In this document: positions 15,230 to 48,745 of the stretch, piece by piece
Layout: the number at the start of each line of letters is the position of its first letter
Numbering within the stretch: the first letter of the stretch is position 1
Assembly: GCA_965249555.1 (NCBI GenBank)
Contig: OZ252243.1
Coordinates: 1,536,001-1,600,000, forward strand
Length of the DNA: 64,000 nucleotides
Direction of reading: 5' to 3'
Origin: Nitrosopumilus sp.
GTDB lineage: Archaea; Thermoproteota; Nitrososphaeria; Nitrososphaerales; Nitrosopumilaceae
Notes under the pieces: model-generated
Database searches by the model: none
Told to the model about the DNA's origin: nothing
Seen by the model: the letters and a program-made list of their open reading frames with translations, nothing else
Translations under genes and position numbers: made by a program

Positions 15230-15239
15230 GGGGGGGGGG
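15230..15239 (+). repeat. G10 homopolymer between tfb and sufC
   Basis: Ten consecutive G; reads C10-T5 just after the tfb stop on the minus strand. Confidence 0.85.
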
Positions 15240-15246
15240 TGTAATG

Positions 15247-16463: not shown

Positions 16464-16536
16464 TTAAAGATTATAACATGATATTCTTATCATATACTTC
16501 TGTCAACTTTACTTTAGCTAAGAGCTAGATTTGATT

Positions 16537-16836: not shown

Positions 16837-16837
16837 C

Positions 16838-17221: not shown

Positions 17222-17287
17222 AAAACCTTGTCTGAATTACTCTAATTTATACAAAACGCAAAAAATTAGCCTTGGATTCAAATCTGT

Positions 17288-17866: not shown

Positions 17867-17919
17867 TTATCTATCACTCCTCTGAAATCTAGTTAAAGAA
17901 ATCTTTTCTCCATAATTGA

Positions 17920-18597: not shown

Positions 18598-18691
18598 ATG
18601 ATAACTTTTATCATATTCAATAATATCTAAGGGCTCTATTTTTCTCTCACTTCCAGTCAACTCTTATATTGTTATGACAAAAAATTAGCCT

Positions 18692-19768: not shown

Positions 19769-19838
19769 TTTGATTTATCATTACAAAATCTTATAAAATA
19801 AAAACATCAAATATTGATTTCAAACGTAAATTGTGAAA

Positions 19839-19894
19839 TTGCAGTTACCCATCTTAAAAACAAGCAATTCATTACTGCTAGGTTATTCTGAAAT
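19839..19894 (+). pseudogene. 5' fragment of the response regulator that continues at 22922
   Basis: TTG start, MQLPIL...SLLLGYSEI, which joins in frame to SEIYLFENGK at 22922 through the repeat ATTCTGAAAT. Confidence 0.7.
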
Positions 19895-20656
19895 AGAATG
19901 ATTCCATTCTTTCATCAAATCGTACTATAGTATTTGCAGCATCTATCATTGCGTTACGTAACCATGCAGAACCCCTCTTTGTTATTCCGCCTCCCCTGTG
20001 CACATCTGCGCTGTCCCTGTGCGATGGTGCAAGTCCTGCATATGAGACCAGTTTTTCTGCTGTTGCAAATCTGCTGTTGCAAATCTGCTGTTGCAAATCT
20101 GCTGATGTCAACTATCTCTGAAATTATTGTCAATGCCGTGACATAGTTTATTCCAGGAATGGTCACTAGTCTTGTTTTCCCATCCTCATTGCTGCCATCT
20201 TTGTCTCAATTGTGCTGATCTGTTTTTGCGGCATATCTATGGTGTCAAGATATGCATCCATTGCCATTCTGTCAACCTCACTCAGATTAATTTCATGCAA
20301 CCATCGTACTCCTTTCTGCGAGAATGTCTTTGTGGGTGTAATCATATTTTGCAAGTATTGCATAAATCATGTTTTTGTGTCTTGAGACACTTTGCACGCG
20401 ATTCAGTCTGGTTCTTACCAGACTGTATAGTCTATATGGTATTTTTCTGGTACAAATGATTCATACACCATGTCTGCTCTTAGCAAGTCTGCCAATACGT
20501 CTGAATCAAGTTTGTCGTTTTTTAGCTTTGCCTGTGCAATTATCTTACTTCTTTCTGGATTCCCGTTTTATTGTTGCAACACATTTTATTTTGTGAACAT
20601 CAATTCCTATACTGATAACTATATGTGAATACAAAAAGAAGTAATTCAGATAGCAT
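19885..20656 (-). pseudogene. IS110-family transposase (type 1), N-terminal and middle part with element left end; frameshifted and deleted
   Basis: IGIDVHK, KNDKLDSDVLA, TIPGI and YAGLAPS...GITKRGS motifs in several frames; left end AT-GCTATC-TGAATT at 20656-20643. Confidence 0.9.
20057..20104 (+). repeat. 14-bp unit triplicated, frameshifting the transposase
   Basis: (CTGCTGTTGCAAAT)x3 followed by CTGCTG. Confidence 0.95.
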
Positions 20657-20810
20657 AGGAAATGAACCCAAGTCCAGGAGTCGTAATCCATCATCCCCAT
20701 GGAAAATTTGCATCTCAGTATTGTGTAACAGGCACGAATTTCAATTCATAGAAGATCCGTATTTCTGTATCCCCTATAAATTTACAGAACCTTATTTGAG
20801 AATCAAAAAA

Positions 20811-22214
20811 CTATTTCCAAATTGTAACAATAGTTGATTTTTCCACGTTATTTCCCTTGCTATCAAATCCTTTGGCAGATATTTTGTAAAGACCTTCAGA
20901 GGCGGCATCGCCGTCATTTTTTATTTGATTCCATGAAAATTCTACCTTCTCTCCAGGTTCCAGATGGGACTCTGCCTGCATACTCATAGGCCTATATATG
21001 ACTATTCCAGACAGGTCAGTGATCATAAGACCATGCGATGAACTAGAAAAAGTCAGCAGAGTGGTTCCAGAATTTGCAATTTGAATTTTTATCTTCTCAT
21101 TTTGCTTAAAAACAGATTTTTCAGTAACTATAGAAATTGAAGAGCCCTCGACAAAAATTTGAGCGGGGACATCACCATCACTTGGAATTGACGGGGTGAC
21201 CTTATGATGAGGCATTATATGGGAATTCGCATAATCTACATAAGGGACAAATTGTTCATCTGGTTCCAAATCTTCAAGCTCTCTAGCTTGGGCCCTACTT
21301 GGCTCAAATTCAGACAAAGTAACAATGCCGTCATCAATGGATGTGTATACCCTAGCAGCATTATCAGCGTATGGTTGTAGTGTAGTCGCATGTACTGTAA
21401 AAGATCCAGAATCATATTTGAGATAATCAAGATTTTCTCTATCATGTATATCTGAGGCAAGATATATGACAGGTTCGTTGATAGTCATTTGGAAAGTTGT
21501 TGGGTTGCCATCAAAAGTCAATCCAGTCAAGTTGTGAGAATAGACCTCAAATGGCGGATAATAATGCTCAAGGATTGTCTTTCCATAGTAAGACAGATCA
21601 GTACCAGAAAGATCGTAATTTGCATGAGATTTAATAGAGTATATCTCCCAATCAGCAATATAACAGAATGTATCCCATAATTCTCGGGCATTGTCAAACT
21701 CTGTTCTATATGTTTCATTATAATCATCTAGTTGTTGCTGTGTCAGTTCAAATGAGGATGTTACAGTAACATCAAAAGTCTGACCAATTTGAACCCTGTC
21801 AGGTACCTGTAATGATATGGAACTTGGCAAGACGCATATCGGTATGGGATTTCCAGCGCCATATAGTTCTCCAACACCAGCTGTGGAATTATCAAATGTG
21901 TCTAGTGAGTTTGATTGTATAGTTATTGTTTTAGATTCCATACCATTTGATTTTAAATCAGACGCATTACTGACTGTCTCAACTTTGACAAATCCCATGT
22001 CTGATAATTTTTCAACAGAACCTTCATTTACACAAGCTGGAGTGTTTCGTGGCGATTCCATCAATACTTTATCATCACTGCATTGGATTTCATCTATTGG
22101 TATTCCCGAACTGTATTGTTTGAATGGTGATAAGATTTTTGTCTCTGCAAGTGCAGGCATTATGCCTATTACGACTGTTATGACTAACAGTCCAAGCAGG
22201 GTCATTTTAATCAT
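20811..22214 (-). CDS. Secreted multidomain protein (signal peptide, SPxKQ...EIQC module, unknown middle, C-terminal Ig/BsuPI-like domain)
   Basis: Probable start ATG 22214 (MIKMTLLGLLVITVVIGIMPALA) with TTAATA about 27 nt upstream; the track start 22289 lies inside the IS end. Confidence 0.8.
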   Translation of the reverse strand: MIKMTLLGLLVITVVIGIMPALAETKILSPFKQYSSGIPIDEIQCSDDKVLMESPRNTPACVNEGSVEKLSDMGFVKVETVSNASDLKSNGMESKTITIQSNSLDTFDNSTAGVGELYGAGNPIPICVLPSSISLQVPDRVQIGQTFDVTVTSSFELTQQQLDDYNETYRTEFDNARELWDTFCYIADWEIYSIKSHANYDLSGTDLSYYGKTILEHYYPPFEVYSHNLTGLTFDGNPTTFQMTINEPVIYLASDIHDRENLDYLKYDSGSFTVHATTLQPYADNAARVYTSIDDGIVTLSEFEPSRAQARELEDLEPDEQFVPYVDYANSHIMPHHKVTPSIPSDGDVPAQIFVEGSSISIVTEKSVFKQNEKIKIQIANSGTTLLTFSSSSHGLMITDLSGIVIYRPMSMQAESHLEPGEKVEFSWNQIKNDGDAASEGLYKISAKGFDSKGNNVEKSTIVTIWK

Positions 22215-22283
22215 CAATCCGTTTGGCAAATCATTTCTATTAAGTAGTATCCAGCTTGGTTGATGGAAATGTTTCAAAGTTTG

Positions 22284-22931
22284 ATCCATGTGAATTGTTT
22301 TTATACATTTCCTACTTTTTTGCGTCCCGAGGCATAGCCTTCGCTAGGACATATTCGCAGTTATCAACCGAGGCTTGTCCCTCAACATATAAAACGCGAC
22401 TTGCAGTCCTAACTGTAATTCTGTACAAATTCTCTTCTCTCTTTTAGCATCCAGTAAATCACTCGCAGGATATTTGATGATGCAGCAACTATATCTTTTG
22501 ATGAGCCTCTCTTCTTTTTAATGCGATTGTAAAATTTTGTAATGTCACTGTTCTTGGCATGTATTGTATGAGAATGAACGCATTGGATAAGGATCCATCG
22601 TACCGTCATGCTTCCCCTTTTGGTTATACGGTCATGGTGTAACCGTGTCTGCAGAATTTCTAACTGATGGCACGACTCCGACATATGCGCATAACCTGTG
22701 AGAGTCATTGAATCTCCCATACGAAATCGTCTCCAACCCTACTGAGGATACTTACTAGCATGCTTTGCTGAATCAGGACATCTCAGATATGCCTTGCATC
22801 TTATACTTTCGCTGTGTCAGTTCATGATTTTGTGTATAATACACTTTCAGAGTTAGCATGTGCCCGGATTGTTGCAAGCATCCTGTCTTGCAGCTGCCAC
22901 CTTTGTTTTCTCCTCTTTGCAATTCTGAAAT
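22284..22931 (-). mobile_element. IS110/IS1111 remnant copy A (type-1 C-terminus, type-2 C-terminus, ncRNA region, right end)
   Basis: FRIAKRR..VAAARQ fragment, then GRFND...RITKRGS...KERREFVQNYS*, then a tail ending AATTCACATGG-AT. Confidence 0.88.
22310..22411 (-). ncRNA. Bridge/seek-RNA-like region, copy A (donor loop deleted)
   Basis: Colinear with copies B and C except for a deletion between TCCT and AGCGAAGG; ends approximate. Confidence 0.55.
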
Positions 22932-23238
22932 CTATCTTTTTGAGAATGGAAAGGACGCTGTAAAAGGATGTAAGAAACTATTTTCTAAAAACAAAGAACC
23001 TGTGGTTCTTCTTGATATGGGACTGCCTGATCTTGAAGGTGATGTTGTTGCAACAAAATTACTCGAGGATAAATTGAATTTACAGATTGCAGTTATCACT
23101 GCTGATGAAAAAACAACCACACGTGTTAACAAAACAATCAGTACTGGCGTATCCGCATTTATTCAAAAACCATTTACACTTGATAAAGTCAAAAAAGCAC
23201 TAGATATTGCAGAATCTGAATATTCTTTATTACAATAA
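22922..23238 (+). pseudogene. CheY-like response regulator receiver, 3' part, interrupted by the insertion
   Basis: VVLLDMGLPD, VITA and FIQKPF receiver motifs; N-terminus missing here. Confidence 0.85.
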
Positions 23239-23728
23239 AAGCAAAGACATGTTTAGTATATTGGCATCTTTGATGTCAATCTCATTGATTCTATAATCAA
23301 TTATCTCTTCTGAAAACTTTTCTACAATTTTCTGTGATGTGTTTGCTTTTTCAGAATCGACTTGAATGATTACTAACATGTTCCATTCTCCTTCCATGTT
23401 TGCTACTAGAAGATAATTATCCAATTTTGTAATGAACTCTCTGATAGAATCTTTTACTGCTTCAAGGGACTGATGGTTTTAGTTTCATCAATATTGCTTG
23501 ATACTTGTTAATTCCAGATACATCTGTCAGAACCGCTTTATACCCTTTAATGATTCCACTTTTCTCAAGTCGTTCCATTCTTCTTCTGATTGTTCTATCT
23601 GAAACATCATGACCTGATTTTGTTAGTTCTGATGCAATTTCTTTTGATGGTGTTCTAGCATTGTTGTTGAGAATCTCAATAATCTTTTGATCAACTTTGT
23701 CTAGATTTGACCATGCATCTTCACTCAT
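23230..23728 (-). pseudogene. Lrp/AsnC regulator split by a frameshift near 23462
   Basis: HTH part LDKVDQKII...RRRMERLEKSGIIKGY, then the RAM part AVKDSIREFITKLDNY...EGEWNML in another frame. Confidence 0.8.
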
Positions 23729-23797
23729 ACTACACAAAAGTTCTAATGCTTTTTGTATTTTTGGTTGAATTTTGCCCACATACCATTTAGGGTTGGC

Positions 23798-24361
23798 CTA
23801 ATCTTCTAAAATCCAACCTGATTCTAAAATTTGCTGATCTTCTTGTTCTCCCACTCCTGTTGCAAATCTCCAAATAAATGATGCATTCGTATTCATTTTT
23901 TCTTTAATCTTTAGAAGTGACTCTATTTCGGAATTTAGATTTTGATCTGCTGTTCCATGTTCTTTACAAAACTTGCATTTGGTATCTAATGTAATTGGTT
24001 CATTTTCAATTAACGGATAAGTCATACATGCAAGTGGTCTGTCTTTGTAAATTTTGCATGGAAATCCACCATGTGGTGATTTTTTTCCACTATTTGTATC
24101 TAAGAAAGGACATGTGTTTCCATTTTTTTCAATTCCCATCAATTGATATGCCAAAATTTTTGTTGGAGCTGAATTTTTGTCCTCAGAAATCCCAATTCTT
24201 GGAAAAATTTTGATCTCTAATTCATTTAATTTTGCTAATTTTTCTATTCGTTCTTTTTCTTCAGGAAGAATTAGCACTCCTATCTTTCCAAATTTCTTAC
24301 TTGGATAATATTCCCTTTCAATACAACATTGAGAACAATCTTCTATGCACCTAAATTCCAC
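23798..24361 (-). CDS. YkgJ-family cysteine-cluster protein
   Basis: CxxxCSQCC, CPFL and CKIYKDRPLACMTYP. Confidence 0.9.
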   Translation of the reverse strand: MEFRCIEDCSQCCIEREYYPSKKFGKIGVLILPEEKERIEKLAKLNELEIKIFPRIGISEDKNSAPTKILAYQLMGIEKNGNTCPFLDTNSGKKSPHGGFPCKIYKDRPLACMTYPLIENEPITLDTKCKFCKEHGTADQNLNSEIESLLKIKEKMNTNASFIWRFATGVGEQEDQQILESGWILED

Positions 24362-24470
24362 AGATTAGTTTTCATTGTAATAGATAAAATTCCTTGTGTA
24401 TTGTGATGTACTGGAATTTGACATAATCAAAAACCCTATCAGTTATATGTTTACAATGCCAATTATCCTC

Positions 24471-24782
24471 ATGGGTAAGCGCCAAGTAAAAAATGAAAGT
24501 GCTCTTAAAGAGATCCGTCTCCCTGAAGAAGGCGAACTTTTTGGCAGGGTATTGAAAATGCTTGGAGGTGAAAATGTCATGATAAAATGTGCCGATAATG
24601 TTACCCGACGTGGTAGAATTAGAGGTAAACTAAAGAGAAGAGTTTGGATTAGAGATAATGATATTGTGATTATTGCACCTTGGGATTTTAAAGAAAATGA
24701 ACGTGGTGATATCATTTGGAGATTCACTCTACCTCAAGTGACATGGTTAAAGGAACAAAATCACATTCCTAAAGATTTCTAG
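24471..24782 (+). CDS. eif1a: Translation initiation factor aIF-1A
   Basis: GRIRGKLKRRVWIRDNDIV; start MGKRQ at 24471. Confidence 0.95.
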   Translation: MGKRQVKNESALKEIRLPEEGELFGRVLKMLGGENVMIKCADNVTRRGRIRGKLKRRVWIRDNDIVIIAPWDFKENERGDIIWRFTLPQVTWLKEQNHIPKDF

Positions 24783-24853
24783 CCTATCTCGTTTTTGACT
24801 TGGTCTGTTTTTAATAACTTACTTAATATAGTGATTAATTATTTGGAAATCAA

Positions 24854-25045
24854 ATGGAACAAGGCACCGTAAAGTGGTTTAACCGTACTAAGGGCTTTGG
24901 TTTTATCGAAAGAGAAGATGGAGACGATCTGTTTGTTCATAAATCAGACGTTGACGGATTCATCAACGAAGGCGATAAAGTCGAGTTTGAAGTAGGCGAA
25001 GGTCAAAAAGGACCTGCAGCACAAAAAGTCAAAAAATCAGAATAG
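24854..25045 (+). CDS. Cold-shock domain protein
   Basis: GTVKWFN, KGFGFI and DLFVH. Confidence 0.96.
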
Positions 25046-25153
25046 GCATAGAATTTTTTAATTTAAGATTTCTTTTGTTTTCTTAAATCAGTCTATCTTT
25101 TTATTATTTTTCACAACCTTAAATTTACTAGAATACACATTTAATTTCATATT

Positions 25154-25762
25154 ATGACTCAAAGAAAAAATATACCCGAATGGGATTCATTCTATAAAGA
25201 AAATAAAGTAGAAGAAATGCCATGGTATGAAAAGAATCTTGATTCTGATTTAGAATATCAAATAAATTCCATGAATCTCACTAAAGGAAAATTTTTAGAT
25301 CTTGGTACTGGTCCTGGGACTCAGGCAATTCAATTAGCTAAATTAGGTTTTGAATCCACAGGAGCTGACATATCAAAAAATGCAATAGACAAAGCCAAAC
25401 AACTTTCAAGTGATGTAAATTTTGTTGTAGATGATATACTAAACTCTGCATTTCCAGATGATTCATTTGACTATATTTTAGACAGGGGCTGTTTTCATGT
25501 ATTTGACCCAGAATTAAGAGAAAAATATCTAAATCAAATTAAGAGAATCTTGAAAGATAATGGGACATTGTTTCTAAAAGTCATGAGTATTGAAGGGAAA
25601 GGCTTACCTGATGATGAGGGACCGCAGAGATTTTCACAGCAAAAAGTTCTAGATACATTTGAAAAAGATTTTGAAGTAGTAGAAATCAAACCAACTGTAT
25701 ATTATGGAACACTTGACCCATTGCCTAAAGCACTATTTGCAGTCATTAAACAAAAGATCTAA
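25154..25762 (+). CDS. Class I SAM-dependent methyltransferase
   Basis: LDLGTGPG and FDYILDRGCFH. Confidence 0.92.
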   Translation: MTQRKNIPEWDSFYKENKVEEMPWYEKNLDSDLEYQINSMNLTKGKFLDLGTGPGTQAIQLAKLGFESTGADISKNAIDKAKQLSSDVNFVVDDILNSAFPDDSFDYILDRGCFHVFDPELREKYLNQIKRILKDNGTLFLKVMSIEGKGLPDDEGPQRFSQQKVLDTFEKDFEVVEIKPTVYYGTLDPLPKALFAVIKQKI

Positions 25763-25810
25763 TCATAGTAAGATTATTCATTCAAATCTTGGCAATGCAA
25801 ATCCCAATGA

Positions 25811-25957
25811 TTAATCTTCTTCGTCATCTTCAGGTTCCTGCATTCCATCATCTATTACTTTTAATGCAAATGCATCTGGAACAAAATCAAATGATACATC
25901 TGACGTTATTCCAATTGAAAGAACAACAGGAATAATGAAAATATTGTTAAATCCCAT
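25811..25957 (-). pseudogene. Signal-peptide-bearing remnant of a secreted protein
   Basis: MGFNNIFIIPVVLSIGITSDVSFDFVPDAFALKVIDDGMQEPEDDEED*. Confidence 0.4.
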
Positions 25958-26081
25958 GTTGATATGATTTGGTAATTAAATTAGAAGGTTAGATATGTAA
26001 TCTTTTTTTTACGGATTTTTCTAATCTAGATACGCTCATATACAAAATTATGAACTTCAAAAAAGCTATATTGAGGTTGGG

Positions 26082-26186
26082 ATGGTTAAAAGAATTCAAT
26101 GTCCATATTGTGAAAAATATATCGCAGGAGAAGGATTTTTGCAAAGACACATCAAAACTGTCCACAAACTAAAATTAACTACATAG
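26082..26186 (+). CDS. 34-aa C2H2 zinc-finger microprotein
   Basis: MVKRIQCPYCEKYIAGEGFLQRHIKTVHKLKLTT*. Confidence 0.65.
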   Translation: MVKRIQCPYCEKYIAGEGFLQRHIKTVHKLKLTT

Positions 26187-26210
26187 TTACAATAAGCGAT
26201 GAATTTTGAA

Positions 26211-26354
26211 TTATTTTATACCTTTACGTATTGCCTGATTTATCACTCTGGAGAAACTTACAGATTTTGGTGAATCCCTTATCTGTCTTGATTGTCTCTC
26301 ACGTAATTTCTTAAAGAGATCATCATCAAGTACTATGGTGATACGTTTCCCCAT
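26211..26354 (-). CDS. 47-aa ribbon-helix-helix-like DNA-binding protein
   Basis: MGKRITIVLDDDLFKKLRERQSRQIRDSPKSVSFSRVINQAIRKGIK*. Confidence 0.75.
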   Translation of the reverse strand: MGKRITIVLDDDLFKKLRERQSRQIRDSPKSVSFSRVINQAIRKGIK

Positions 26355-26516
26355 GATGTAATCCATCACTTCATACATTTTAAGTTGTTCGTTTTTTTAT
26401 TGTAACTGATTATCCTTCATAATTATATGTAAAATTATTTTGCGTGATCAATACATAATTTTCTATAATTCAAACTTACAAATTTTAAATCAATATTTAA
26501 TTCCCAGAAAATTTTG

Positions 26517-26643
26517 TGGTCCCGTGGGGCGGAATTGAACCACCGACAACCCGGTTTCTGTATGCCTGATATGCTGCTATTTGGTCAGCCATCTAAAGCC
26601 AACAACTACAGCCGGAAGCTCTACCAGGCTGAGCTACCACGGG
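26517..26643 (-). tRNA. tRNA-Tyr(GTA) with a 50-nt intron at 37/38 (26556-26605) and encoded CCA
   Basis: C1-G72 acceptor CCCGTGG/CCACGGG-A-CCA; TCCGG-CT-GTA-G[intron]A-CCGGG. Confidence 0.95.
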
Positions 26644-26754
26644 ACAAGGAAAACGAAGATCTATACTATTAAAAAACTATCGTAGGTGGGTTTGTCAATT
26701 TGATCGTTATAACGTACTATACGCATAAATACTCTTGACAGATTTTTAAGCTTA

Positions 26755-27366
26755 ATGTCAAAGCTAACATTATCTTATTCTGGTTATGTTGTTGCTCCCT
26801 ATTTGCATACTCATAGATCTATTGAACTTAAAGAAACTTGGATTAATTCAAAAAATATTGAAAAATTATTTTTTGTTACCGGCACATTTTCTAGTGAAAG
26901 CAAACCATACTTTTCTGATTCTACTAATCATTATCTTCTAGCTAAATTCAAAGATAGTGAACTGACATCACAAGATCTTGCTATGTATAACCAAGAAAAG
27001 ACTTCTTTTGTATTTAATATCAAAGATGATCTCTTCAAAAGAGAAGTTAAAGGCGAAACTAATTTTGTTTCAGTATACTATCTAGAGTATGGAGAAGATA
27101 ATGAAGACCTCCAAGTAATTGCAAACCTCTTGATAAAAAGAGACAAAATTGAGAAAGCTGGACTGGGAAACATGAATACCCGTTGCTTAAATCCTTCAAA
27201 GTTTACATTTCCATACTCTGAAAATATTGTAGTCATTGAAGTTGCAAGTGAAAAGAGTCATCAAAGTCTACAGAAATACTGCGAACAAACACGACGTGAT
27301 GTTAACAGAAAAGGATTAACATTGACTAACTTGATGAGTCTCTCCCTTCTTGATCAACTAAAATAG
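26755..27366 (+). CDS. Hypothetical protein
   Basis: 203-aa ORF with host-like composition upstream of aIF-5A. Confidence 0.8.
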   Translation: MSKLTLSYSGYVVAPYLHTHRSIELKETWINSKNIEKLFFVTGTFSSESKPYFSDSTNHYLLAKFKDSELTSQDLAMYNQEKTSFVFNIKDDLFKREVKGETNFVSVYYLEYGEDNEDLQVIANLLIKRDKIEKAGLGNMNTRCLNPSKFTFPYSENIVVIEVASEKSHQSLQKYCEQTRRDVNRKGLTLTNLMSLSLLDQLK

Positions 27367-27399
27367 AAAAGTTAAATATTCGAGCAAAAACTGTTTTGC

Positions 27400-27816
27400 A
27401 TGAGCAAGCCATCTGATCTCGGTTCTTTGAAAATAGGTTCTTACATTCTATTACCACATTCTGATCAACCAAGTGGCGAACCATGCAGAATTGTTGAATA
27501 TGATACATCAAAACCAGGAAAACACGGTTCAGCAAAAGCACGAATTGTTGGACAGGGAATTTTTGATGGTCAAAAAAGACCTCATGTAGGACCAGTTAGC
27601 ATGCAAATTCACATCCCGTTAATTAACAAAAAAGTTGGCCAAATCATTTCAATTAATGGTGACGTCATACAAGTAATGGATTCTGAAACATTTGAGACAA
27701 TTGATGTATCTATGATTGACGATGAAGTTAAAGGCAAATTAGAAAATGGGCAAAATGTAGAATATTGGGTTGTAATGGATAAAACTAAAATAATGAGGAT
27801 TAAAAGTATTACTTGA
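27400..27816 (+). CDS. eif5a: Translation factor aIF-5A
   Basis: Hypusine loop SKPGKHGSAK. Confidence 0.96.
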   Translation: MSKPSDLGSLKIGSYILLPHSDQPSGEPCRIVEYDTSKPGKHGSAKARIVGQGIFDGQKRPHVGPVSMQIHIPLINKKVGQIISINGDVIQVMDSETFETIDVSMIDDEVKGKLENGQNVEYWVVMDKTKIMRIKSIT

Positions 27817-28028
27817 TAATAACGCATTTTATCATACAGTCAACTCATCCTAAAACTGATCATTTTGTAAATATTTGATGATAATATGGATCTAACAACA
27901 CAAACATGTCTTCATGATTCATAAAGAAATGTCAGATGCTCAATGATACATATACTAGAACAATTTCAAAGTCAATTCATGGGGTGCAGGGAAATCTGTG
28001 TACAATATAAGGCAAAAAAACCGTATGT

Positions 28029-28395
28029 ATCCATGTGAATTGTTTTTATACATTTCCCACTTTTTTGCATCCCAAGGCATAGCCTTCGCTATGGAATGCT
28101 TTCAAACAAAAGATGACGGACATGTATCCATACGAGGTCTGTTCCTCAATGCTATCTTCATCCCTTTGTCAGGATTATTCGCAGTTATTACCCGAGGCTT
28201 GTCCCTCAACATCTAACACGCGACTTGCAGTCCTAACTGTAATTCTGTACAAATTCTCTCCTCTCTTTTAGCATCCAGTAAATCACTCGCAGGATCTTTG
28301 ATGATGTGGCAACTGCGGCCTTTGATGAACCTCTCTTCTTTTTAATGCGATTGTAAAATTTTGTAATGTCACTGTTCTTGGCATGTATTGTATGA
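28029..28395 (-). mobile_element. IS110/IS1111 remnant copy B (type-2 C-terminus, ncRNA region, right end)
   Basis: KNSDITKFYNRIKKKRGSSKAAVA...QNYS* followed by the shared tail ending AATTCACATGG-AT. Confidence 0.88.
28050..28235 (-). ncRNA. Bridge/seek-RNA-like region, copy B
   Basis: Two internal-loop domains, each capped by a GAGG-N6-CCTC hairpin; ends approximate. Confidence 0.65.
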
Positions 28396-28776
28396 TTCCA
28401 TTCAACTGTTGTATGCAATTAAGATATTTTCAGGTTTGTGTTATTAATGATTTTGACATATTATACATATGGAACCACTATCAGTAATCATGAAACAGCG
28501 TGATGATACTTTTTGCTGGAACAATGTTTGCTTTAATTGTTCTACACTGTACATCAGGGAGATGAAGATACAACAGGGATTGTAATTTGTTTGATCTGTT
28601 AAAGTATGTGTTAGGGGCAGAATACCCAATCACCTAATTCAAAATGCCTCAAAGTAAAGATTCTGAACAGACACAAATTGTATAGTTTTGGTGATCTGTA
28701 TGCAGAAAAGTTCATGCATAAAACTCATAGACTCATACCTCCATATCACAATACAATGACTGAACTCTTTTCAAAG

Positions 28777-28784
28777 CTTTTATA
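28777..28784 (+). promoter_or_regulatory. TATA box of giant gene 1
   Basis: GCTTTTATAA about 25 nt upstream of ATG 28809; same motif and spacing as at giant gene 2. Confidence 0.6.
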
Positions 28785-28808
28785 AATTATAAATAATTCT
28801 GTTGCAAT

Positions 28809-28871
28809 ATGAACAAAGTATTATTCTCTGCGTTAATGGGTGGAGTGGGCTTGGCCTCATTTGTCATATAA
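28809..28871 (+). other. 20-codon leader ORF (MNKVLFSALMGGVGLASFVI*), out of frame with giant gene 1
   Basis: Read directly; conserved upstream of giant gene 2. Confidence 0.75.
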
Positions 28872-28878
28872 CTCACCC

Positions 28879-31800
28879 TTGCAGGCAATTATCAGGTACC
28901 CATTTCTCTGCCTCGTATTTGCGGCACTATTTGCCATATCACTGGTCCTTGGGAGTGCCGAGGCCACCCAAGTCACCATCACACCGCTAACTTATGTAGA
29001 TGGTCAGACGGCAATTGAGCCAGGCTCTTTTAACATTATAGTGGATGACAGCCTTCGTCTAACTACGACCTTTGTTCCGCGGCAAGCCGGTGATTGGAGG
29101 ATTACGTCTGATGGTTTTGATCCTCTTGATGGCAGTGTTACTCAATCTGAGGTAAATAATAATGCACGTTTAGGGGATTTTAACAGACAACTGAGTATTG
29201 GTTTTGAGGACGATATCGTTCTTTTCTTCAAACCCAGTGGGGCTAGTGAATTTGCAAAAGTTGCAAGTGGAAACGTGGGGATTGTTCCTGATCTACCTGT
29301 ACTCAGGGTGGTAGGTGTCACTCCGACGTCTATAACGCTTGAATGGGATGATGTGGATGGTGCCCGTGGATACCATTTATTCATAAATGCAGTCGCACAT
29401 ATTACCACTGATCCATCAATCACTTTTGATGAATTAGATCCTGGAACAGAGTACTCTATTGCTGCCATAACAACAACAATTGGTAGTAACGCTATTAGTG
29501 CCAGATCTGCTCCGTTGGATGTAACCACATTGGCTGTAACTCCCTTGTCTGCAACAATAACTTATGCAGATGACCAGACGGCACTTGCCGAAAACATTTT
29601 TGCCGTTATACTGCCTTCCCCGGGAAATGCGGTAAATGTGTGGATTTCACCGCTAGAGAAGGGCACACTTAGATTTGAATCTAGTAATATTGGGAAGAAT
29701 GTCCCGGTTGCTTCAGGTGTGGATCAGACTGTTGCAAGGCCGCTGCCTCATGGTGATGATAATATTGTCATTTCATCAAGCGGTACAGAAGTTGCAAGGA
29801 TATCTATAACGACTGAGCTGGATCCTGATGAACCAGTTTATGCAGAAGAGCAGACGGCAATCCGGGAAGGCTCTTTACGTTATGAGCCGGTTGTAGATGG
29901 TAGCAGCATAAGTGTGAACTTTGTGCCAACAGACGCCGGCAACTTTGTATTTAGATATGGTGACTCTACTTCCACCTCTATTATTAATAAGTTGGGTGCA
30001 GAAGTAACAGTCGGCCTCCCCGTAGGTCATGATTATGATGATGACGTTATCATTGAATTCGGCGGCGTAGAAGCTGTAAGGATGCATGTAACGACCCCGT
30101 CTGAAGACGGTGTATCAATCCAAGCAGGCTCGTTTGTGGTTGTTGATACGATAAATGCAGACGCATTACGCGTAGAATTTGTACCGTTAAAGGAAGGCAC
30201 ATTTACGGTTACGGCAGGTGATACAAGTGAGACAGTTGACGTCTCAGCTGGGGATGTATCGGAATCAACACCAAAAGGGACTGAAATAACAGTCGGGTAT
30301 GAATTTGATGATAATGTCATCCTTTCATTTGGAGGCAAGGATGCTGCAAGGATACATGTGACGACCGGACCCACACCACTCGTACCTTCAGCGCCATCGC
30401 TTAGAATTACAGGTACCACTCATGACACTGTAACGCTCTCATGGGATGCAGTACATCGTGCCGACACCTACACCCTGACCCGAACCCTTGGAAGCAACCC
30501 TGCTGTAACGGTGCTATCTGGAATCGCTGACCTGACTTTTACTGATAAGAACCTGGCTGCCGAAACCGATTACACGTATTCCCTTACGGCGATAAATTCT
30601 GTCGGGCCAAGCGAACCTTCCGAGGATACTGTAACCACTGATGCTGCCCCAACTCCACCCGATACCCCGACACTTGTAGCGGGAGTAACCACCCATAATA
30701 CCGTCAGCCTCTCATGGGACGAACCGACCGGGGCCGACAGCTACATACTGACCAGGACTGCCGGCACGGTGATAATTGAGATACCGGTAACTGGGGGAAC
30801 GCACACTGACGATGCTTTGAAATCTGGAGTACAATACACCTATTCCATAAGGGCAGTGTCTGCAATTGGAGCCAGTCCAGATTCTAATGATGTCATCGTA
30901 ACCACGATTCCAGTACCCATAACACCTACCACGCCAACTTACACGGACGGCCAGACTGCAATCGATGAATCCTTTGGCATTATCCTGCTTGGCGATGGCA
31001 CGGCAGGGGTATTCTTTGATGCCACCGATGACGGAAAATATCATGTCGGGTGGGGAGCAGAGACTAGTACCCCTATTACTTACGAGGATGGCTACAGTGC
31101 ATATGTCGTGATTCCTATTGGCGACTATGCCGGCGTTGTCATCTTGTTCTTTGACGATAACGAGGTTGCAAGGCAAGTGGTACCTGCCGTGATAAGCCCG
31201 ATCAAAGACGGTACCCTGTCAGTCACTGATGATGCAGACGGGATCATAACCGTATCACTTACGCCGGCATTTGCCGGCACGTTTTCTGTCAGCACCAATT
31301 CCCTAGAGTCTGAAAAAATTCCCGGCGTACCTGATACCCAGATAGATATTACCCTGGATGTCGGACATGGCTTTGCCGAGGATGTCCTTGTCTCATTCAA
31401 TAATATTATAGTTGCAGGGATATTTGTAACGACCGTCCCTGATGCCCCGGCGCTTGTTCTGGGGCCCGTCACCAGCACCAGCATCACCCTCTCATGGAAT
31501 TCGGTGGATAATGCCGATAGATACACCCTGACCAGAACCGCTGATGGCACTGATGTAATAATAGTATCAGGCAACGTATTGACTTTCACTGATGAGGGTC
31601 TTGCTGCCGGAACCAATTACGTGTATGCCATTACGGCGACAACTCCTGAGGGCAGAACAGGCGCTATATCTGCAGAGCTTGCAGTTGATATTGGCTCTGC
31701 TGCAGAATCCTTTGGCGTCATAGTGGACGGTGATGGTGCATCCGTATCCTTTACACCGCTAGTACCTGGCGATTTCACGATTGGATACGGCGATGATTCA

Positions 31801-34800
31801 GCCAATGATGTTACCATCTCTGTCGCGACTGGCAAGTTGTCTGCAAAACTAACCACGATAAAGGTCGGCTATAATTTTAACGGCCCGGTCACCCTCTCCC
31901 TTGATAATGATATTATTGGCAGGATATTGATAGTCACCGAGCCTCCTCCTACCACGCTTGATGCAACGGCAGTCACCGATACGAGCATCACCCTTGCATG
32001 GCCTCCACAGCCCGAGGTCCAGGAATACAGGCTGTACAGGAACGGCGCCCTCGTAGTTGCTACTGGCGAGCTGTCTTACACTGACACCGGACTGGATTCT
32101 AACACAGCTTACACTTATCACATCGAGTCACACAATGACGTCTCCACAACAAGTGACCGGTCTGCAGATTTGGATGTAACTACGCTTATAGAGCCACCCA
32201 GACTTGTGGCAGGGGAGATCACCACTACAAGCGTAGAGCTTACATGGGATGCAGTAGCCGGCGCCAATGATTATGTCCTGTACCGAGATGGAGTAAATAT
32301 AGCATTAGTTACTGGCACAACGCACAAGGTCACTGGACTGGCTGCCGGAACGGAATATTCCTTTACTGCCGAGTCGCGTCATCTTAATTTTTTGACAAGC
32401 CCGCTATCCTCACCGCTATCCGTAAGGACAGTCCCTGACACTCCGGCACTCCGTGTTACGGGTACTACTTTTGACACTATAACATTATCATGGAGCCCGG
32501 TAAATGGTGCCGCAAGCTATACTCTGACCCGGGTTGTCGAAGGTGATGATGTGACGGTGTTCTCAGGCGACGCACTGACTGCCACTGATGAGAACCTGAG
32601 CCCTGCAACATCCTACAATTATATAATTACGGCTACAACTTCTGGCGGGACAAGCGCTCCCTCTGCCGAGTTTGCTGCAAGTACTGCATCGGCAGTTCCT
32701 ATAATCACAACATCATCTCAAATTGTCAATACGCCATCAATCACGATTGCCGGTACAGCTGAATCTGGGAAAACAGTGGAACTATTCCAGGGAGAAACAT
32801 CAGCTGGTACGACAACTGCCGATGGAACAGGCGCCTTCTCATTTGAAGTTACGCTGGCTGATGGTGCCAACTCTTTCACTGCAACGGCATCTGATGGAAC
32901 CGATACGTCTGTACCATCATCACCTATAGTCATTACACTTGATACTGAAAAACCGTTAATCACGGTATTAGGTTCTGATGAAACAATAGAGCTGACTGCA
33001 GCCGACACTTACGCCGAACCTGGCGCCACCGTAGAAGATAATGACCCTGCTTACTCTGAGGACGTGACAGTTGCAGGCAATACCCCTGACACCAGCGTTA
33101 TAAGAGTATACACCGTAACGTATAATGCACCAGCTGATGCGGCAGGCAACGAGCCGGACCAACAGTCAATTACAATTACCGTATCTGACACCACCCCTCC
33201 GACCTTTGACGTTGATGGTCACACAACTAACTATGCAACTACAGTGCCGTTTGCAGGAACATACACCCAAGGTATAATTGCCAACGAATCTGACATTTCA
33301 GGAATTGCATCTGGCACAGTTGGCGGCAAATCAGTAAACGTTCATGTCTCAGCAGAGTATGCCGTAACTTACACTGTAACTGACAACAATGGACAGGCCG
33401 CAACAATCACTGAAACCGTTACGGTGGGGGATGATGAAGAAAAGCCAGTAATTACACCATTAGGATCCAGTGAGACAATCATAGTATCTGAAACCGACAC
33501 TTACACGGAACCTGACGCCACTGTAAAAGATAATGACCCTGCTTACTCTGAGGACGTGACAGTTGCAGGTGATACTCCTGACACCAGTGTTGTAGGGGAA
33601 TATACCGTATTGTATACTGCGCCAGCCGATGCGGCAGGCAACATACCCGATGAAAAATCAATTGTAATTTCCATAGTCGATCCCCCAACTTCCCCGCCTG
33701 CCACCATTCGAACACTCAGCGTTTCATCTACTACCCATGACAGCATCACCCTCTCATGGGATGCAGTGGCCACTGCCGCAAGTTACACCGTGACCCGAAT
33801 CGTTGATGGCGGTCCTGATGTAGAGGTGGCATCTGAAATCACTGAACTGACTGCCACTGATGAGAACCTAGCTGCCGATACAACGTACAAGTATACCATC
33901 AAGGCGATAAATTCTGCCGGGGCAAGTACCTCTCTGGAGTTCTCTCTAAATACTGCTGCGATACCAGCCGCACCTGCGGCACCCGTACTTTCTGTAACCT
34001 CTACCACTGATACAACCGTATCATTCTCATGGGGTGCAGTGGAGGGTGCCGACAGCTACACCCTGACCCGGGTCGTTGCAGACGGTTCTGACGTGCCGGT
34101 GCCGACAACCCCTGAACTTACTGCCACTGATGAGAACCTGGCCCCCGAAACATCTTACAATTATATAATTACGGCGACAAATGCCGGCGGGACAACCCCT
34201 TCTGCCACGTTTGAGGCAACCACGTCTGCTCCACCTGCGCCTGCCACTCCCGTATTCAGCACTGTTGTATCTGCCACTCATAACAGCATAAATCTCTCAT
34301 GGAGTGCAGTGGCCGGTGCCGACAGCTACACGCTGACCAGGGTCGCTGAGAGCGGCAACAATGTCAGGGTGTTCTCAGGTGACGCACTGACTTTTACCAA
34401 TGCCGGACTGGATCCTGATACAGCTTACAATTATATCATTATGGCAACAAACTCTGCAGGTACAAGTGAACCATCTGACCAGTTTACTGCAACTACATCT
34501 ACTGCGCCTCCAACCCTTGTTATACATGATACCCCCACACTTGTTGCCGGAATAATCACCTATAATACCGTCAACCTCTCATGGGACGAACCGGCCGGGG
34601 CCGACAGCTACATCCTGACCAGGACTGCCGGCACAGACACGACAGAGATACCGGTCATCGGGGGAACGCACGCAGATGATACCTTGGAACCTACAACACA
34701 ATACACCTATTCCGTAAAGGCAGTGTCTGCATCTGGAGACAGTGCCGATTCTAATGATGTCATCGCAACCACGATTCCGGTACCCATACTGCCTACCACG

Positions 34801-37800
34801 CCAACTTATGCAGTCGACCAGTCTGCAATCGTTGGAACCTCTTTTGAGATTATCAGAATTGATGATGATACCATAACAGTATCCTTTGATGCCATCAATG
34901 ACGGGGAATATTATGTCCAGTGGGGAGAATCAGAGACTAGCCCCACTACCATAACAGGTGGCAACAGTGCATCTGTCCAAATTCCTATTGACGACTATGC
35001 CGGCGTTGTCATCTTGTTCTTTGAGGATAACGAGGTTGCAAGGCAGCAGGTACCTGCCGTAACAAGCCCGATCAAAGACGGTACCCTGTCAGTCACTGAT
35101 GATGCAGACGGAATCATAACCGTATCACTTACACCGGCATTTGCCGGCACATTTTCTGTCGGCACCCATTCCCTGGATTCTGAAAAAATTCCCGGCGTAC
35201 CGGATACCACGATAGTGATTACCCTGGATGTCGGCCATGGCTTTGCCGAGGATGTCTTGGTTTCATTCAATAATATTATAGTTGCAAAGGTATTCGTAAC
35301 GACTGTCCCTGAGACCCCGGCGCTTGTCCTGGGAGCCGTCACCGGTACCAGCATTGCTCTTTCATGGGGTTCGGTGGATAATGCCGATAGCTACACCCTG
35401 ACCAGAACCGCTGATGGCACTGATGTAATAATAGTATCAGGCAACGTATTGACTTTCACTGATGAGGGTCTTGCTGCCGGAACCAATTACGTGTATGCCA
35501 TTACGGCGACAACGCCTGAGGGCAGAACAAGTGCCACTTCTGCAGATCTTGCAGTGACTATCGGCTCTGCTGCGCAATCCTTTGACGTCATAGCAGACGG
35601 TGATGATGCATCCATATCCTTTACACCGCTAGTACCTGGCGATTTCACGATTGGATACGGCGATGATTCATCTAATGATATTACTGTCACCATTGCATCT
35701 GATGAGGTGGACGAGCCATCAACCACTCCAGTAACAGTCGGCTATAATTTTAACGGCCCGGTCACTCTCTCCCTTGATAATGATATTATTGGCAGGGTAT
35801 TGCTAGTCACCGAGCCTCCTCCTACCGCGCTTGATGCAACGGCAGTCACCGATACGAGCATCATCCTTGCATGGCCTTCGCAGCCCGAGGTCCAGGAATA
35901 CAGGCTGTACAGGAACGGCGCCCTCGTAGTTGCTACCGGCGAGCTGTCCTACACTGACACCGGACTGGCTGCTGAAACGGTTTACATTTATCACATCGAG
36001 TCACACAATGACATCTCCACGACAAGTGACCAGTCTGCCAATCTGATCGCATCCACGGGTTCGGCTGCAGCACCTGGCACGCCAGCTGAGATACCTGCAA
36101 TAGAATCAGGCTCTTTTGGTGTTACGGCCGGCGTTGATGATGCGACTGCATCATTTGTACCATTAAGGTCCGGCGATTTCATAATCGGATATGGCACTGA
36201 TCAGAGCGTTACTGTCACCATTGCAGGTGACGCATTAGGCAAGGCATCAACCACCACGGTACCGGTCGGGGATGGTTATGATGGCCCGGTCACCCTGACA
36301 TTTGACGGTGAGCAAGTCGGCACGGTACCTGTAAGGGCCGGAATCACAAATGATACAGAAAAACCGGTAATCACACCAACAGGATCTACTCAAACAATAG
36401 AGCTGACTGCAGCCGACACTTACACCGAACCTGGCGCCACCGTAAAAGATAATGACCCTGCCTACTCTGAGAAAGTGACAGTTGCAGGCGATACCCCTGA
36501 CACCAGCGTTATAGGGGAATACACCGTATTGTATAATGCGCCAGCTGATGCGGCAGGCAACGAACCGGACCAACAGTCAATTGCAATTACCGTATCTGAT
36601 ACCACTCCGCCAGCCTTTGACGTTGATGGTCACACAACTGACTATGCAACTACAGTGCCGTTTGCAGGAACATACACCCAAGGTATAATTGCCAACGAAT
36701 CTGACATTTCAGGAATTGCATCCAGTGTTGTAGGTGGTAACTCGGTAGATGTTAATGTCCCAGGACAATACGCCGTAACTTATACTGTAACTGACGGCAA
36801 TGAACAAGTCGCAACAATCACTGAGACTGTCACGGTAGAACCTGATGCAGAAAAGCCAGTTATCACACCTATGGGATCTACCCGGACAATAGAACTGACT
36901 GCAACCAACACTTACGCGGAACTTGGTGCCACCGTAACTGACAATGACCGAGATTACTCTGGAACAGTAACAGTTACAGGTGATAAGCCTAACACCGGTG
37001 CTGTAGGAGTATACATCGTAACATACACTGCGCCAGCCGATGCGGCAGGCAACGAACCGGATCCACAATCAATTGTAATTTCTGTGGTTGATACCCCGGT
37101 ACCAACTGGAATAACTTACACGGAAGGCCAGACGGCAATCGAGGAAGGCTCTCTTGGTTATACGCTAAATGATCCGGGAAATACGATATCCGTGGACTTT
37201 AAGCCACTAAAGGCAGGCACGTACAAGTTTCAATATGGCGTCTCCTTTTCTAATGTCCAAGTTTCGGAAGCTGAGATAGGTGAAAATAAACGCCTTCTAA
37301 TCCACGGCATAGGTTATAATTATAATGCCGATATTGTCATTTCACTTGGCAGTACCGAGGTTGCAAGTGTATCTGTAGCGACCGGGCCTGCACCTCCCGT
37401 ACTTTCTGTAGGGGCAGTCACTGACACAAGTATAGCATTTTCATGGGGTGCAGTGACTGGTGCTACACACTATAATGTGTATAGGGATGGCATTGTACAA
37501 GGAAGAGATATCGGAGTGACATCATTCGCGGATACTGGTCTGACTCCTGGAACAGAGTACGCATATCATGTCATAGCATTCAATGGTCTTGCGGCAAGTG
37601 CCAGTTCTAATGTTGAGTCTGTAACTACAACTGGAACTGCACCTGTTACAATACCTGACACTCCCACACTTAGTATTGTAGCTACTACTCATAACAGCAT
37701 AGAGCTCTCATGGACTGCAGTGGAGAATGCCGACAGTTACACTTTAACCAGAATTGTTGATGGCGATGATAATGTACCAGTGCCAACAACTGATGCATTG

Positions 37801-40800
37801 TCTGCCACTGATACTGGCTTGTCTGCTGCAACTGATTACAAGTATGTCATTACGGCAACAAATTCTGATGGGACAAGTGATCCTTCTGCAGAGTTTGATG
37901 CAAGGACTGGTGATTCTCCAACATACACCATCGACCATACTCTTCATATTGACGGAGATAAAGTAGTTATAACCTTCACATCGTCACACACCGATGATTT
38001 TACAATTGAATTTGATGGTGGTCGTACCATTGGCTTTAGAATTGATGATGCAGCCGTCCCATACATTCACACAGAAACAGTCGGGTATGATTATGATGGC
38101 AATGTTAGTATTTTCCTTGGCCTTGACGAAGTTGCAAAGTTACCTGTAACTACTGGGTCTGAACCAACTGTAACAGCTGTAAGAAATGCTGATAATTCCG
38201 TTACAGTATCCTGGAGTAATATAGAAACTAGTATCACCAATGAATATGTTCTTACTATTAGTGACGGTAGTAGTGATTCTGATACTTTCACTCCATCTGG
38301 AGCATCAAATCAACATACTATCAGTACTACTCGTACCATCGATCTAAACGATGCTAATGAAGTTTGTGTAAAGGGTGTTGGTGTAGATAATAAAATATGT
38401 GAACCTGTACCTGAAGCATTTGATATAACAGCACCAGTAATCACAGTAACAGGATCTGATACAACAATAGAGTTAACTGCAACTGACACCTACACTATAC
38501 CTGGCGCTACTGTAGCTGATAATGACCCAAATTACTCTGAAACAGTAGCAGTTACAGGTGATACACCTGACACCAGTAGTATAGGAGTCTACACCGTATT
38601 GTATGATGCGCCAAATGATGCGGCAGGTAACAAACCAGAACAAGAATCAATTACAATTACCGTAGTTGATACCACACCGCCAACCTTTGATGTCAATGGC
38701 AACACAGATGACTATTCCACTGCAGTACCATTTGGCGAAACATACACACCAGGTGCAATTGCCAATGCATTTGATATCTCAGGAATTGTATCTAGTGACG
38801 TTGGCGGTGACACAGTAAATGTCAACACTTCTAGAGACTATGTTGTAACTTATACTGTAACTGACAGCAATGGACGAACCACAACAATCACTGAAACTGT
38901 AACAGTAGGACCTGATGTTACAGCACCAGCAGTTCCTGAAATCACCACCTCACCTGCAACTGTCAATACACCATCATTCACGATTGATGGTACGGCTGAG
39001 GCCGGGACAACTGTAGCACTATTCAATGGAGGAACATCAGTTGATACCGTAATTGCTGATTCAGGTAGTTTCTCATTTACAGTTACACTGACTGAGGGTG
39101 AGAACTCATTCACTGTAACAGCGTCTGATGGACCAAACACATCTGACGCATCACCAGCTATAGTCATTACACTTGATACTATACCACCGGAAGCTCCTAT
39201 AATCACCACACCACCTGCAACTGTCAATACACCATCATTCACGATTGAAGGTACGGCTGAGGCCGGGACAACTGTAGCACTATTCAATGGAGTGACACCA
39301 GCTGGTACGACAACTGCCGATGGTTCAGGGAATTTCTCATTTACAGTTACACTGACTGATGGTGAGAACGCATTCACTGCAACAGCATCTGATGGACCAA
39401 ACACATCTGACGCATCACCAGCTATAGTCATTACACTTGATACCATACCACCGGAAGCTCCTGAAATTACCACCTCACCTGCAACTGTCAATACACCATC
39501 ATTCACGATTGAAGGTACGGCTGAAGCCGGGACAACTGTAGAACTGCTCAAGGGAGGAACATCAACTGGTGATACAGTAGCTGCTGATGGTGACGGGAAT
39601 TTCTCATTTACAGTTACACTGACTGATGGTGAGAACTCATTCACTGCAACGGCGTCTGATGGACCAAACACATCTGCTGCATCACCAGCTATAGTCATTA
39701 CACTTGATACCATACCACCGGAAGCTCCTGAAATTACCACCTCACCTGCAACTGTCAATACATCATCATTCACGATTGAAGGTACGGCTGAAGCCGGGAC
39801 AACTGTAGCACTGCTTAAGGGAGCAACATCAACTGGTGATACAGTAACTGCTGATTCGGGATCTTTCTCATTTACAGTTACACTGACTGATGGTGAGAAC
39901 TCATTCACTGCAACGGCGTCTGATGGACCAAACACATCTGCATCATCATCACCTGTACTCATTACGCTTGATACCACAGCACCAGCAGTTCCTGCAATTA
40001 CCACACCACCTGCAACTGTCAATACACCATCAATCACGATTGATGGTACGGCTGAAGCTGGGTCAACTGTGGAACTGTTCCGTGGAGTAACAACAGTTGA
40101 TACAGTAACTGCTGATTCGGGATCTTTCTCATTTACAGTTACACTGACTGATGGTGAGAACTCATTCACTGCAACGGCGTCTGATGGACCAAACACATCT
40201 GACGCATCATCACCTGTACTCATTACACTTGATACCATAGCACCAGCAGTTCCTGAAATTACCACCTCACCTGCAACTGTCAATACATCATCATTCACGA
40301 TTGATGGTACGGCTGAAGCTGGGTCAACTGTGGAACTGTTCCGTGGAGTAACATCTGTTGATACAGTAACTGCTGATTCGGGATCTTTCTCATTTACAGT
40401 TACACTGACTGATGGTGAGAACTCATTCACTGCAACGGCGTCTGATGGACCAAACACATCTGACGCATCATCACCTGTACTCATTACACTTGATACCATA
40501 CCACCGGAAGCTCCTGAAATTACCACCTCACCTGCAACTGTCAATACACCATCATTCACGATTGATGGTACGGCTGAGGCCGGGACAACTGTAGCACTGC
40601 TCAAGGGAGCAACATCAACTGGTGATACAGTAGCTGCTGATTCGGGATCTTTCTCATTTACAGTTACACTGACTGATGGTGAGAACTCATTCACTGCAAC
40701 GGCGTCTGATGGACCAAACACATCTGACGCATCATCACCTGTACTCATTACACTTGATACCATAGCACCAGCAGTTCCTGAAATTACCACCTCACCTGCA

Positions 40801-48738: not shown

Positions 48739-48745
48739 CCCACCC

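Follow-up and report, generated by a model that had tools for sequence, protein, structure and literature searches.

We analysed a 64,000-nucleotide stretch of DNA from Nitrosopumilus sp. (hereafter the window), corresponding to positions 1,536,001–1,600,000 of a closed 2.23-Mb genome with 34.4% G+C and a completeness of 99.97%. The genome encodes an archaeal AmoA and TFIIB, and the organism is therefore an ammonia-oxidising archaeon. The window carries two giant genes, gene 1 and gene 2, each of which lies one base out of frame behind a short open reading frame (ORF) preceded by a TATA box. We propose, with a probability of roughly 0.6, that both belong to a family of secreted fn3/Ig-repeat proteins that are gated by a run of G residues at the 5' end of the gene, that is, by slipped-strand phase variation. 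An initial annotation of this DNA had offered three options for the displaced frames, namely phase variation by G slippage, +1 recoding, and a conserved upstream ORF (uORF) with re-initiation at a TTG codon.

The arrangement at the 5' ends of the two genes, including the one-base offset behind a 20-codon ORF, was confirmed in the sequence at the coordinates proposed earlier. All features of these two 5' ends are on the plus strand. In gene 1, a TATA box (TTTTATAAA, 28778–28786; matrix score 9.2) precedes a leader ORF of 20 codons and a TAA stop (28809–28871, with the ATG at 28809 and the stop at 28869–28871), which was also placed in an alignment with the paralogs. Within the leader lies a degenerate G tract, GGGTGGAGTGGG (28838–28849), whose longest run is G3 and which occupies the site of G10–G12 in paralogs. 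The giant ORF of 6,324 codons (28837–47811) is in the +1 frame relative to the leader ATG, and its signal peptide contains a second, intact hydrophobic core with an A-E-A cleavage motif (28894–28959), recognized from the N-terminus of the long frame and from the paralog alignment. Gene 2 has a TATA box at 48645–48652 (matrix score 10.1), a leader ORF of 20 codons and a TAA (48676–48738, ATG at 48676), a G7 tract (48705–48711), and a giant ORF, also in the +1 frame, that runs from 48704 to 64000 and beyond the window end, reaching 7,128 codons in the genome. Removal of one G from the G7 tract places the leader ATG in frame with the giant ORF. Compared with in-frame relatives, the surplus G of gene 2 is in the first run (G7 versus G6 in an in-frame paralog), and that of gene 1 in the second run (GTGGG versus GTGG in gene 2). 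Two histories require equally many events: either the ancestor was in frame and two insertions arose independently, or it was already out of frame and later changes compensated for one another.

The promoters of both genes are strong and regularly spaced. In each gene, the leader ATG has a TTTATA hexamer beginning at −30. This position falls within the genome-wide peak of TATA hexamers, which spans −32 to −27 relative to the first ATG and is represented by 79 of 824 ORFs of at least 250 aa. Neither score is reached by any coding control, and at most 1% of real upstream regions score as high. The promoter matrix was trained on this genome with no more than 54 sites, whose starts were crudely called; it is adequate for ranking the TATA boxes of the family as strong and too weak to decide on a TATA-like box inside gene 2, which is considered below. 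Because the TATA boxes are at −30, inside the genome-wide peak, and in the top 1% of matrix scores, a leaderless message beginning at the leader ATG would be the natural reading for both genes.

The 5' ends of further paralogs, which the initial annotation had regarded as a check on its proposals, bear out a variable G tract. A genome search with the 5' end retrieved eight further genes with the same promoter and leader. In total, the family comprises 12 genes; 11 of them, together with one 64-residue fragment, are recognizable by a C-terminal domain, and the twelfth gene by its 5' end only. Six family genes carry an intact G10–G12 tract at the same codon, about 28 nt past the leaderless ATG, between the n-region and the hydrophobic core of the signal peptide. 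In-frame and out-of-frame members are mixed: three are in frame, all with G11 (1,577, 1,621, and 1,903 aa), and three are out of frame, with G12 (1,624 codons), G10 (1,948 codons), and G12 (11,434 codons). Four more genes have interrupted tracts, namely gene 1 and gene 2, which are out of frame, and two in-frame genes encoding 5,960 and 6,343 aa. The remaining two genes have a plain signal peptide and no G tract; since they keep the same signal peptide without it, the tract is an insertion. Frames computed for all members show that adding or removing one unit of the tract shifts the start codon into or out of register with a long uninterrupted ORF. Flanks that are 86–97% identical surround G10, G11, and G12 within the genome. 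In one case, near-identical paralog flanks (154 of 159 bases) enclose different tracts, G11 versus G10, and the tract therefore changes faster than its surroundings. Outside this genome, a search for the leader DNA gave weak matches only, in 4 of 40 relatives.

An extended form of the 5' end is found in gene 1, gene 2, and the 11,434-codon gene. In these genes, the original frame passes through a decayed first hydrophobic core and closes at a shared TAA; the intact second core, with its A-E-A cleavage motif, is encoded farther downstream in another frame. The leader ORF of gene 1 is a remnant of the original signal peptide of the family, in its original frame. In the 11,434-codon gene, with its G12 tract, one of the three frames joins the leader to the protein body, through the frame that genes 1 and 2 need. 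Several other members have features of their own. The 6,343-aa gene has an extra upstream copy of the promoter and leader with a TTG start and a G11 tract (G000:C1:46290–46470, minus strand). The G11 leader forms a uORF of 31 codons, the stop of which shares an ATGA with the main start codon. This overlap is reached with just one of the three tract lengths, and the G11 uORF may gate the gene via translational coupling. A family member without a G tract (G000:C1:1338179–1339144) has a 730-codon frame with an internal TAG inside the C-terminal domain, and the 64-residue fragment of this domain (G000:C1:672741–672932) lies directly downstream of the 11,434-codon gene.

Long G/C runs are enriched in this genome and cluster in the family. 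Ten G/C runs of at least 9 are present in the 2.23 Mb, compared with 0.49 expected from composition, and 7 of the 10 are in family 5' ends. A/T runs of at least 9 are depleted (61 observed versus 131 expected). Pure GGG runs in a genome of 34% G+C point to selection on the DNA rather than on glycine. A role in G-quadruplex formation was set aside on reasoning, a single G10–G12 run being too short for four G3 tracts. A contingency locus needs a homopolymer long enough for hypermutation, roughly 7 G/C or longer and located in the promoter or the 5' part of the coding region. By this measure, the G7 tract of gene 2 is borderline, and gene 1, with no run above G3, does not itself qualify as a hypermutable switch. 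Searches for the mismatch-repair proteins MutS (MutS_V) and NucS (NucS_C) gave no match in this 99.97% complete genome, with the controls responding; MutL was not searched. Campylobacter is not known to possess MutS/MutL repair.

The three runs outside the family 5' ends are in diverse places. Type III mod genes of restriction-modification (R-M) systems are a classic phase-variable gene class. One such gene in this genome (N6_N4_Mtase; G000:C1:1950540–1952400, locus L135:241–2101) contains a G13 run 87 nt downstream of its ATG and is followed by res with ResIII and endonuclease domains. As assembled, mod is one base out of frame, and G12 would be in frame, making this gene a candidate archaeal 'phasevarion'. 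A G10 run is found in the window at 15230–15239 (poly-C on the minus strand), between a TFB gene and an ABC ATPase gene (14376–15146, minus strand), 8 nt past the TFB stop and about 55 nt upstream of the TATA box of the ABC ATPase gene; genome G017 has a G11 run at the homologous place (L086). The tenth run is a single G9. The tracts of interest, the G7 of gene 2 among them, are at genome positions 46418, 499852, 708997, 1551230, 1584705, 1798981, 1833927, 1950627, 2133085, and 2178472.

G tracts in comparable places recur in other species of the genus. Runs of nine G are present in 41 of the 60 other genomes sampled, and the C-terminal domain in 32 of 120. Tract contexts were read in six genomes (G017, G052, G091, G120, G131, and G002). 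In G017, where the C-terminal domain is only about 31% identical, 8 of the 20 tracts examined (25 in the genome) are in the 5' ends of giant genes, five of which are in frame and three out of frame. The order of elements in these genes is a leaderless ATG, a serine-rich segment, a hydrophobic core, a G11–G14 tract, and a second, near-identical hydrophobic core with a cleavage site. G052 has 8 of 20 examined tracts (again 25 in the genome) at the signal-peptide end, with G11 and G12 mixed, and in G091, 11 of 18 tracts are by our reading in or beside signal peptides, including one pair with near-identical flanks and tracts of G8 versus G13. A second arrangement was found in G120, the closest genome (56% identical), with 4 of 15 tracts directly 3' of a TATA box and upstream of the ATG of signal-peptide ORFs, and in G131, with 7 of the 20 tracts examined (40 in the genome) directly 3' of a TATA box and upstream of signal-peptide ORF starts. 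At these loci (L100, L102, L103, and L114 in G120; L156, L157, L159, L163, L164, L170, and L172 in G131), G11–G15 begins 0–6 nt past the TATA box. A change in tract length would there alter the spacing between the TATA box and the start and would thus constitute a promoter-type switch for archaeal transcription. That unrelated secreted-protein families in several species acquired a 5' poly-G tract is a signature of selection for mutability.

The duplication of the hydrophobic core around the tract has arisen in two unrelated leader sequences. Both copies are intact in G017 (L080, L088, and L096–L099), and the first is decayed in genes 1 and 2 (28809–28960). In G052, a different class of gene also carries tracts: seven loci (L124, L126, L127, and L129–L132) have A6–8 followed by G8–12 in copies of an IS-like gene, and these copies differ in tract length and frame.

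The extended 5' ends admit an alternative in which expression of the giant proteins does not depend on the tract. The leader would serve as a uORF or be bypassed, and the proteins would begin at internal starts. In gene 1, the candidate is the in-frame TTG at 28879–28881, 7 nt past the leader stop, reached by re-initiation. In gene 2, the candidates are the TTG at 48746–48748 and the in-frame ATG at 48761–48763, which directly precedes the hydrophobic core and has a TATA-like box, TCATATAA, at −29; an earlier placement of these gene 2 starts is hereby corrected. The leader is 20 codons long in both genes despite different arrangements of G, the TTG is common to all three extended-type genes (gene 1, gene 2, and the 11,434-codon gene), signal peptides predicted from the TTG or ATG are plausible, and the giant ORFs are intact, all of which suits internal initiation. 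However, the TTG (28879 and 48746) has neither a correctly spaced TATA box (matrix score −14.3 at 28879) nor, by eye, a Shine-Dalgarno-like motif, and it can be traced to a CTTGCA in the ancestral signal peptide, which accounts for its conservation. The TATA-like box inside gene 2 has a matrix score of 1.9, which is equalled by 8.6% of coding controls, and the matching codon of gene 1 is AGG; the ATG at 48761 is thus a weak candidate for a tract-independent leaderless start. In the G12 paralog of 11,434 codons, a gap of 25 nt separates the leader stop from the TTG, and in the analogous giant genes of G017, the tract leads into the second hydrophobic core without an intervening start codon. Re-initiation at the TTG could still apply to genes 1 and 2, but it fails to generalize to the G12 paralog and to G017, and we consider tract-independent expression possible but rather unlikely.

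The different positions of the surplus G in the two genes bear directly on recoding, in which some messages would regain the frame through a +1 ribosomal frameshift or through slippage of transcription at the G run. G runs can slip, a +1 slip of the glycine tRNA on GGG-G in gene 2 would yield the fusion protein, and the G10–G13 tracts of paralogs might render 'off' alleles leaky. Nevertheless, the base to be skipped is at different places in gene 1 and gene 2, there is no re-pairing codon at the gene 1 site, and the two genes have no slippery motif or stimulator in common. Among the paralogs, a shift of −1, +1, or 0 would be needed, so that no single rule fits. The +1 recoding option thus finds no support, and we regard recoding as the least probable of all explanations considered.

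The encoded proteins are arrays of fn3, Big_13, and Bact_surface_Ig-like domains and end with a conserved C-terminal domain of 336 aa (46801–47808 in gene 1), which has no match in Pfam or NCBIfam. The domain is present in 646 cluster representatives, and its C-terminal location holds among the best 150 of these 646. An AlphaFold model of the domain (pLDDT 81.5) predicts beta-sandwich domains and two C-terminal helices, and a Foldseek comparison of this model with the PDB gave generic Ig-like matches only (TM ≤0.25). In gene 1, the window positions 38922–45247 contain 24 tandem copies of a 264-nt unit (88 aa, Ig-like) with 88% identity. This array is a possible second source of length variation and creates a spurious antisense ORF of 2,152 aa (38850–45308, minus strand).

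The giant ORFs bear the marks of selection. Genes 1 and 2 differ by 507 substitutions over 2,384 aligned codons, and no stop codon is observed where 13.4 would be expected under neutrality (P ~1e-6). The argument of the initial annotation that the long intact ORFs exclude long silence is upheld by this result, and both frames were held open by past selection. An off state that is recent or intermittent accords exactly with the prediction of phase variation. The ratio dN/dS, which was used as a test of gene life versus death and is confounded by gene conversion among paralogs, is 0.24 in the C-terminal domain and 0.77 over the N-terminal 2,384 codons.

These data also speak to whether gene 1, and perhaps gene 2, are dead copies, that is, recent pseudogenes that stay off. 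The interrupted tract of gene 1 with its longest run of G3, the N-terminal dN/dS, and the internal TAG in another family member are all compatible with such a fate. Against it stand the complete lack of stops in 6,324 and 7,128 codons, when neutral divergence would have left about 13 in the N-terminal third by itself, and the low dN/dS of the C-terminal domain, a value to which gene conversion with live paralogs could also lead. Permanent inactivation of this kind is improbable in our view.

The out-of-frame state could in principle be an artifact of sequencing or assembly, if the true DNA were in frame at either site or at both. Some long-read assemblies are prone to errors in homopolymers such as G7. 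A mistake in a G3 run is unlikely, however, two independent errors of the same sign would be required, and out-of-frame paralogs are the norm in this and related genomes. In addition, contigs from three runs (two samples of one study, probably the source of the assembly) have no indel at 28838–28849, which is weak evidence of correctness. An error at these sites is, all told, very improbable.

Over window positions 15000–34900, the only indel positions in these contigs are 20488, 22403, and 28631. Upstream of the gene 1 promoter, at 28436–28642, contigs of all three runs carry alternative letters and a 2-base deletion; these variants are most likely attributable to two paralogs with near-identical upstream sequence (genome positions 527,000 and 46,500) rather than to real polymorphism. 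Metagenome contigs were scanned with two exact patterns, for the extended and the short 5' end with a variable tract, and 0 matches were returned. A search of a protein collection with the first 300 residues of the gene 1 long frame found none at 165–525 aa and one weak partial match among longer proteins.

The case for slipped-strand phase variation is carried by the anatomy of the 5' ends, the paralog series, the enrichment of G/C runs, the recurrence across species, the lack of a MutS or NucS match, and past selection on the ORFs. Several observations weigh against it. Gene 1 has no run longer than G3, and its extra G is therefore not a typical product of slippage. The equal out-of-frame offset of the two genes would also fit a maintained uORF, and the N-terminal dN/dS is compatible with relaxed constraint as well as with diversifying selection. 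The contigs from the three runs, which drop rare variants and whose bridging of the sites is unconfirmed, contain no indel at either the G10 run at 15230–15239 or the gene 1 tract. The in-frame and out-of-frame states of the G10–G12 tracts come from one assembly, whose homopolymer accuracy is not assessable. Finally, in G002, a GC-rich species, none of 19 tracts is in a signal peptide or a comparable place. G slippage stands as the best of the three options first put forward, by virtue of the G10–G12 tracts of the paralogs and the evidence from other species; it falls short at the interrupted tract of gene 1 and in the lack of length polymorphism in the contigs.

We hypothesize that slipped-strand phase variation operates in this family as follows; the start of transcription, the slippage itself, and the on/off phenotype are what we infer from the DNA. 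Transcription would begin at or beside the leader ATG, with the TATA box at −30, and translation at this 5'-terminal ATG. The number of G residues would then decide whether the ribosome reads into the hydrophobic core and the protein body. Replication slippage that gains or loses a G would switch each gene on or off randomly and heritably, as in contingency loci, and would probably go unchecked by mismatch repair because no MutS or NucS gene was found. In the extended form, the first copy of the core would have decayed into the 20-codon leader, leaving the second, intact core in the +1 frame. Gene 2 would be a switch in the off position, with a G7 tract that can plausibly switch back. Gene 1 would be a switch whose tract decayed while off, so that the gene is now either locked off, because the tract is broken by T and A, or recently inactivated; its return would be possible only via a rare indel or recombination with a paralogous 5' end.

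A broader interpretation, to which we give even odds, is that the genus possesses an organized 'phasome' in which dozens of poly-G tracts stochastically switch giant surface proteins and a Type III methylase in a background without MutS or NucS. Some tracts would sit in the signal-peptide code just past a leaderless start codon, and others in the interval separating the TATA box from the start codon. Recurring duplication of the core would represent an archaeal design feature, and the broken tracts of genes 1 and 2 would represent 'locked' states.

The closest parallel among known systems is pilC of Neisseria gonorrhoeae, in which, according to the accessible parts of the source, frameshifts in a G run of the signal peptide switch a surface/adhesion protein independently of RecA (PMC5354566, citing Jonsson et al. 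1991). The G run is inside the signal-peptide code in both cases. In contrast to the genes described here, pilC is bacterial, is expressed from a leadered, Shine-Dalgarno-type message, and is represented by one or two genes of ordinary size, whereas the archaeal family has a leaderless ATG 30 nt past a TATA box, 12 paralogs of up to 11,434 codons, tracts flanked by a duplicated or decayed copy of the core, and switching that is deduced from sequence. The phasomes of Campylobacter and Neisseria, as portrayed in the portions available to us, comprise many poly-G/C loci per genome at the 5' ends of surface-related and R-M methylase genes, with a mix of on and off states (PMC6321876, PMC5953494). 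They share with the present case a low-G+C genome and long G/C runs clustered in 5' ends, but belong to host-associated pathogens under immune pressure rather than to a free-living or environmental nitrifier, for which viruses, grazers, or surface attachment would be the likely pressures. In Bifidobacterium breve UCC2003, slippage of an intragenic G tract controls a sortase-dependent pilus, as established by error-excluding deep sequencing in the accessible part of that study (PMC9187656). This, too, is an intragenic G tract on a surface-structure gene of a non-pathogen; switching was measured there, unlike here, and the domain of life, the gene family, and the position of the tract all differ.

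For archaea, a survey of homopolymers in 18 genomes focused, in its accessible sections, on poly(A)/(T); tracts of poly(C)/(G) were reported to lie no nearer the 5' end (PMC2831843). According to a preprint, as far as its accessible text goes, descriptions of contingency loci in archaea exist (PMC12633550), and the accessible sections of a 2026 review of prokaryotic methyltransferases name no archaeal phase-variable system (PMC13076061). Our literature search, which did not extend to subscription journals and closed supplements, found no report of repeat-based phase variation in Thaumarchaeota or ammonia-oxidising archaea. The class of mechanism is known, being familiar from bacterial pathogens and scarcely recorded in archaea, and the host lineage, the scale, and the layout with a leaderless start and a duplicated core are new.

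Ammonia-oxidising archaea drive a large share of global nitrification, and to our knowledge almost nothing is known about variation of their cell surface. If the tracts switch, a clonal culture would be a mosaic of cells with different sets of giant surface proteins, and, via the Type III mod gene, may be a mosaic of methylation states as well. This would have a bearing on virus resistance, attachment, aggregation, and the reproducibility of culture experiments, and would account for the labelling of such genes as frameshifted or truncated by annotation pipelines. Phase variation by simple repeats, for which bacterial pathogens provide the paradigm, would then also include free-living archaea whose messages are leaderless. 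Should an organized phasome indeed exist in the genus, it would provide a clear case of archaeal populations, here of a globally important nitrifier, using phase variation by simple repeats as a strategy, most likely as bet-hedging against viruses that use the giant proteins as receptors.

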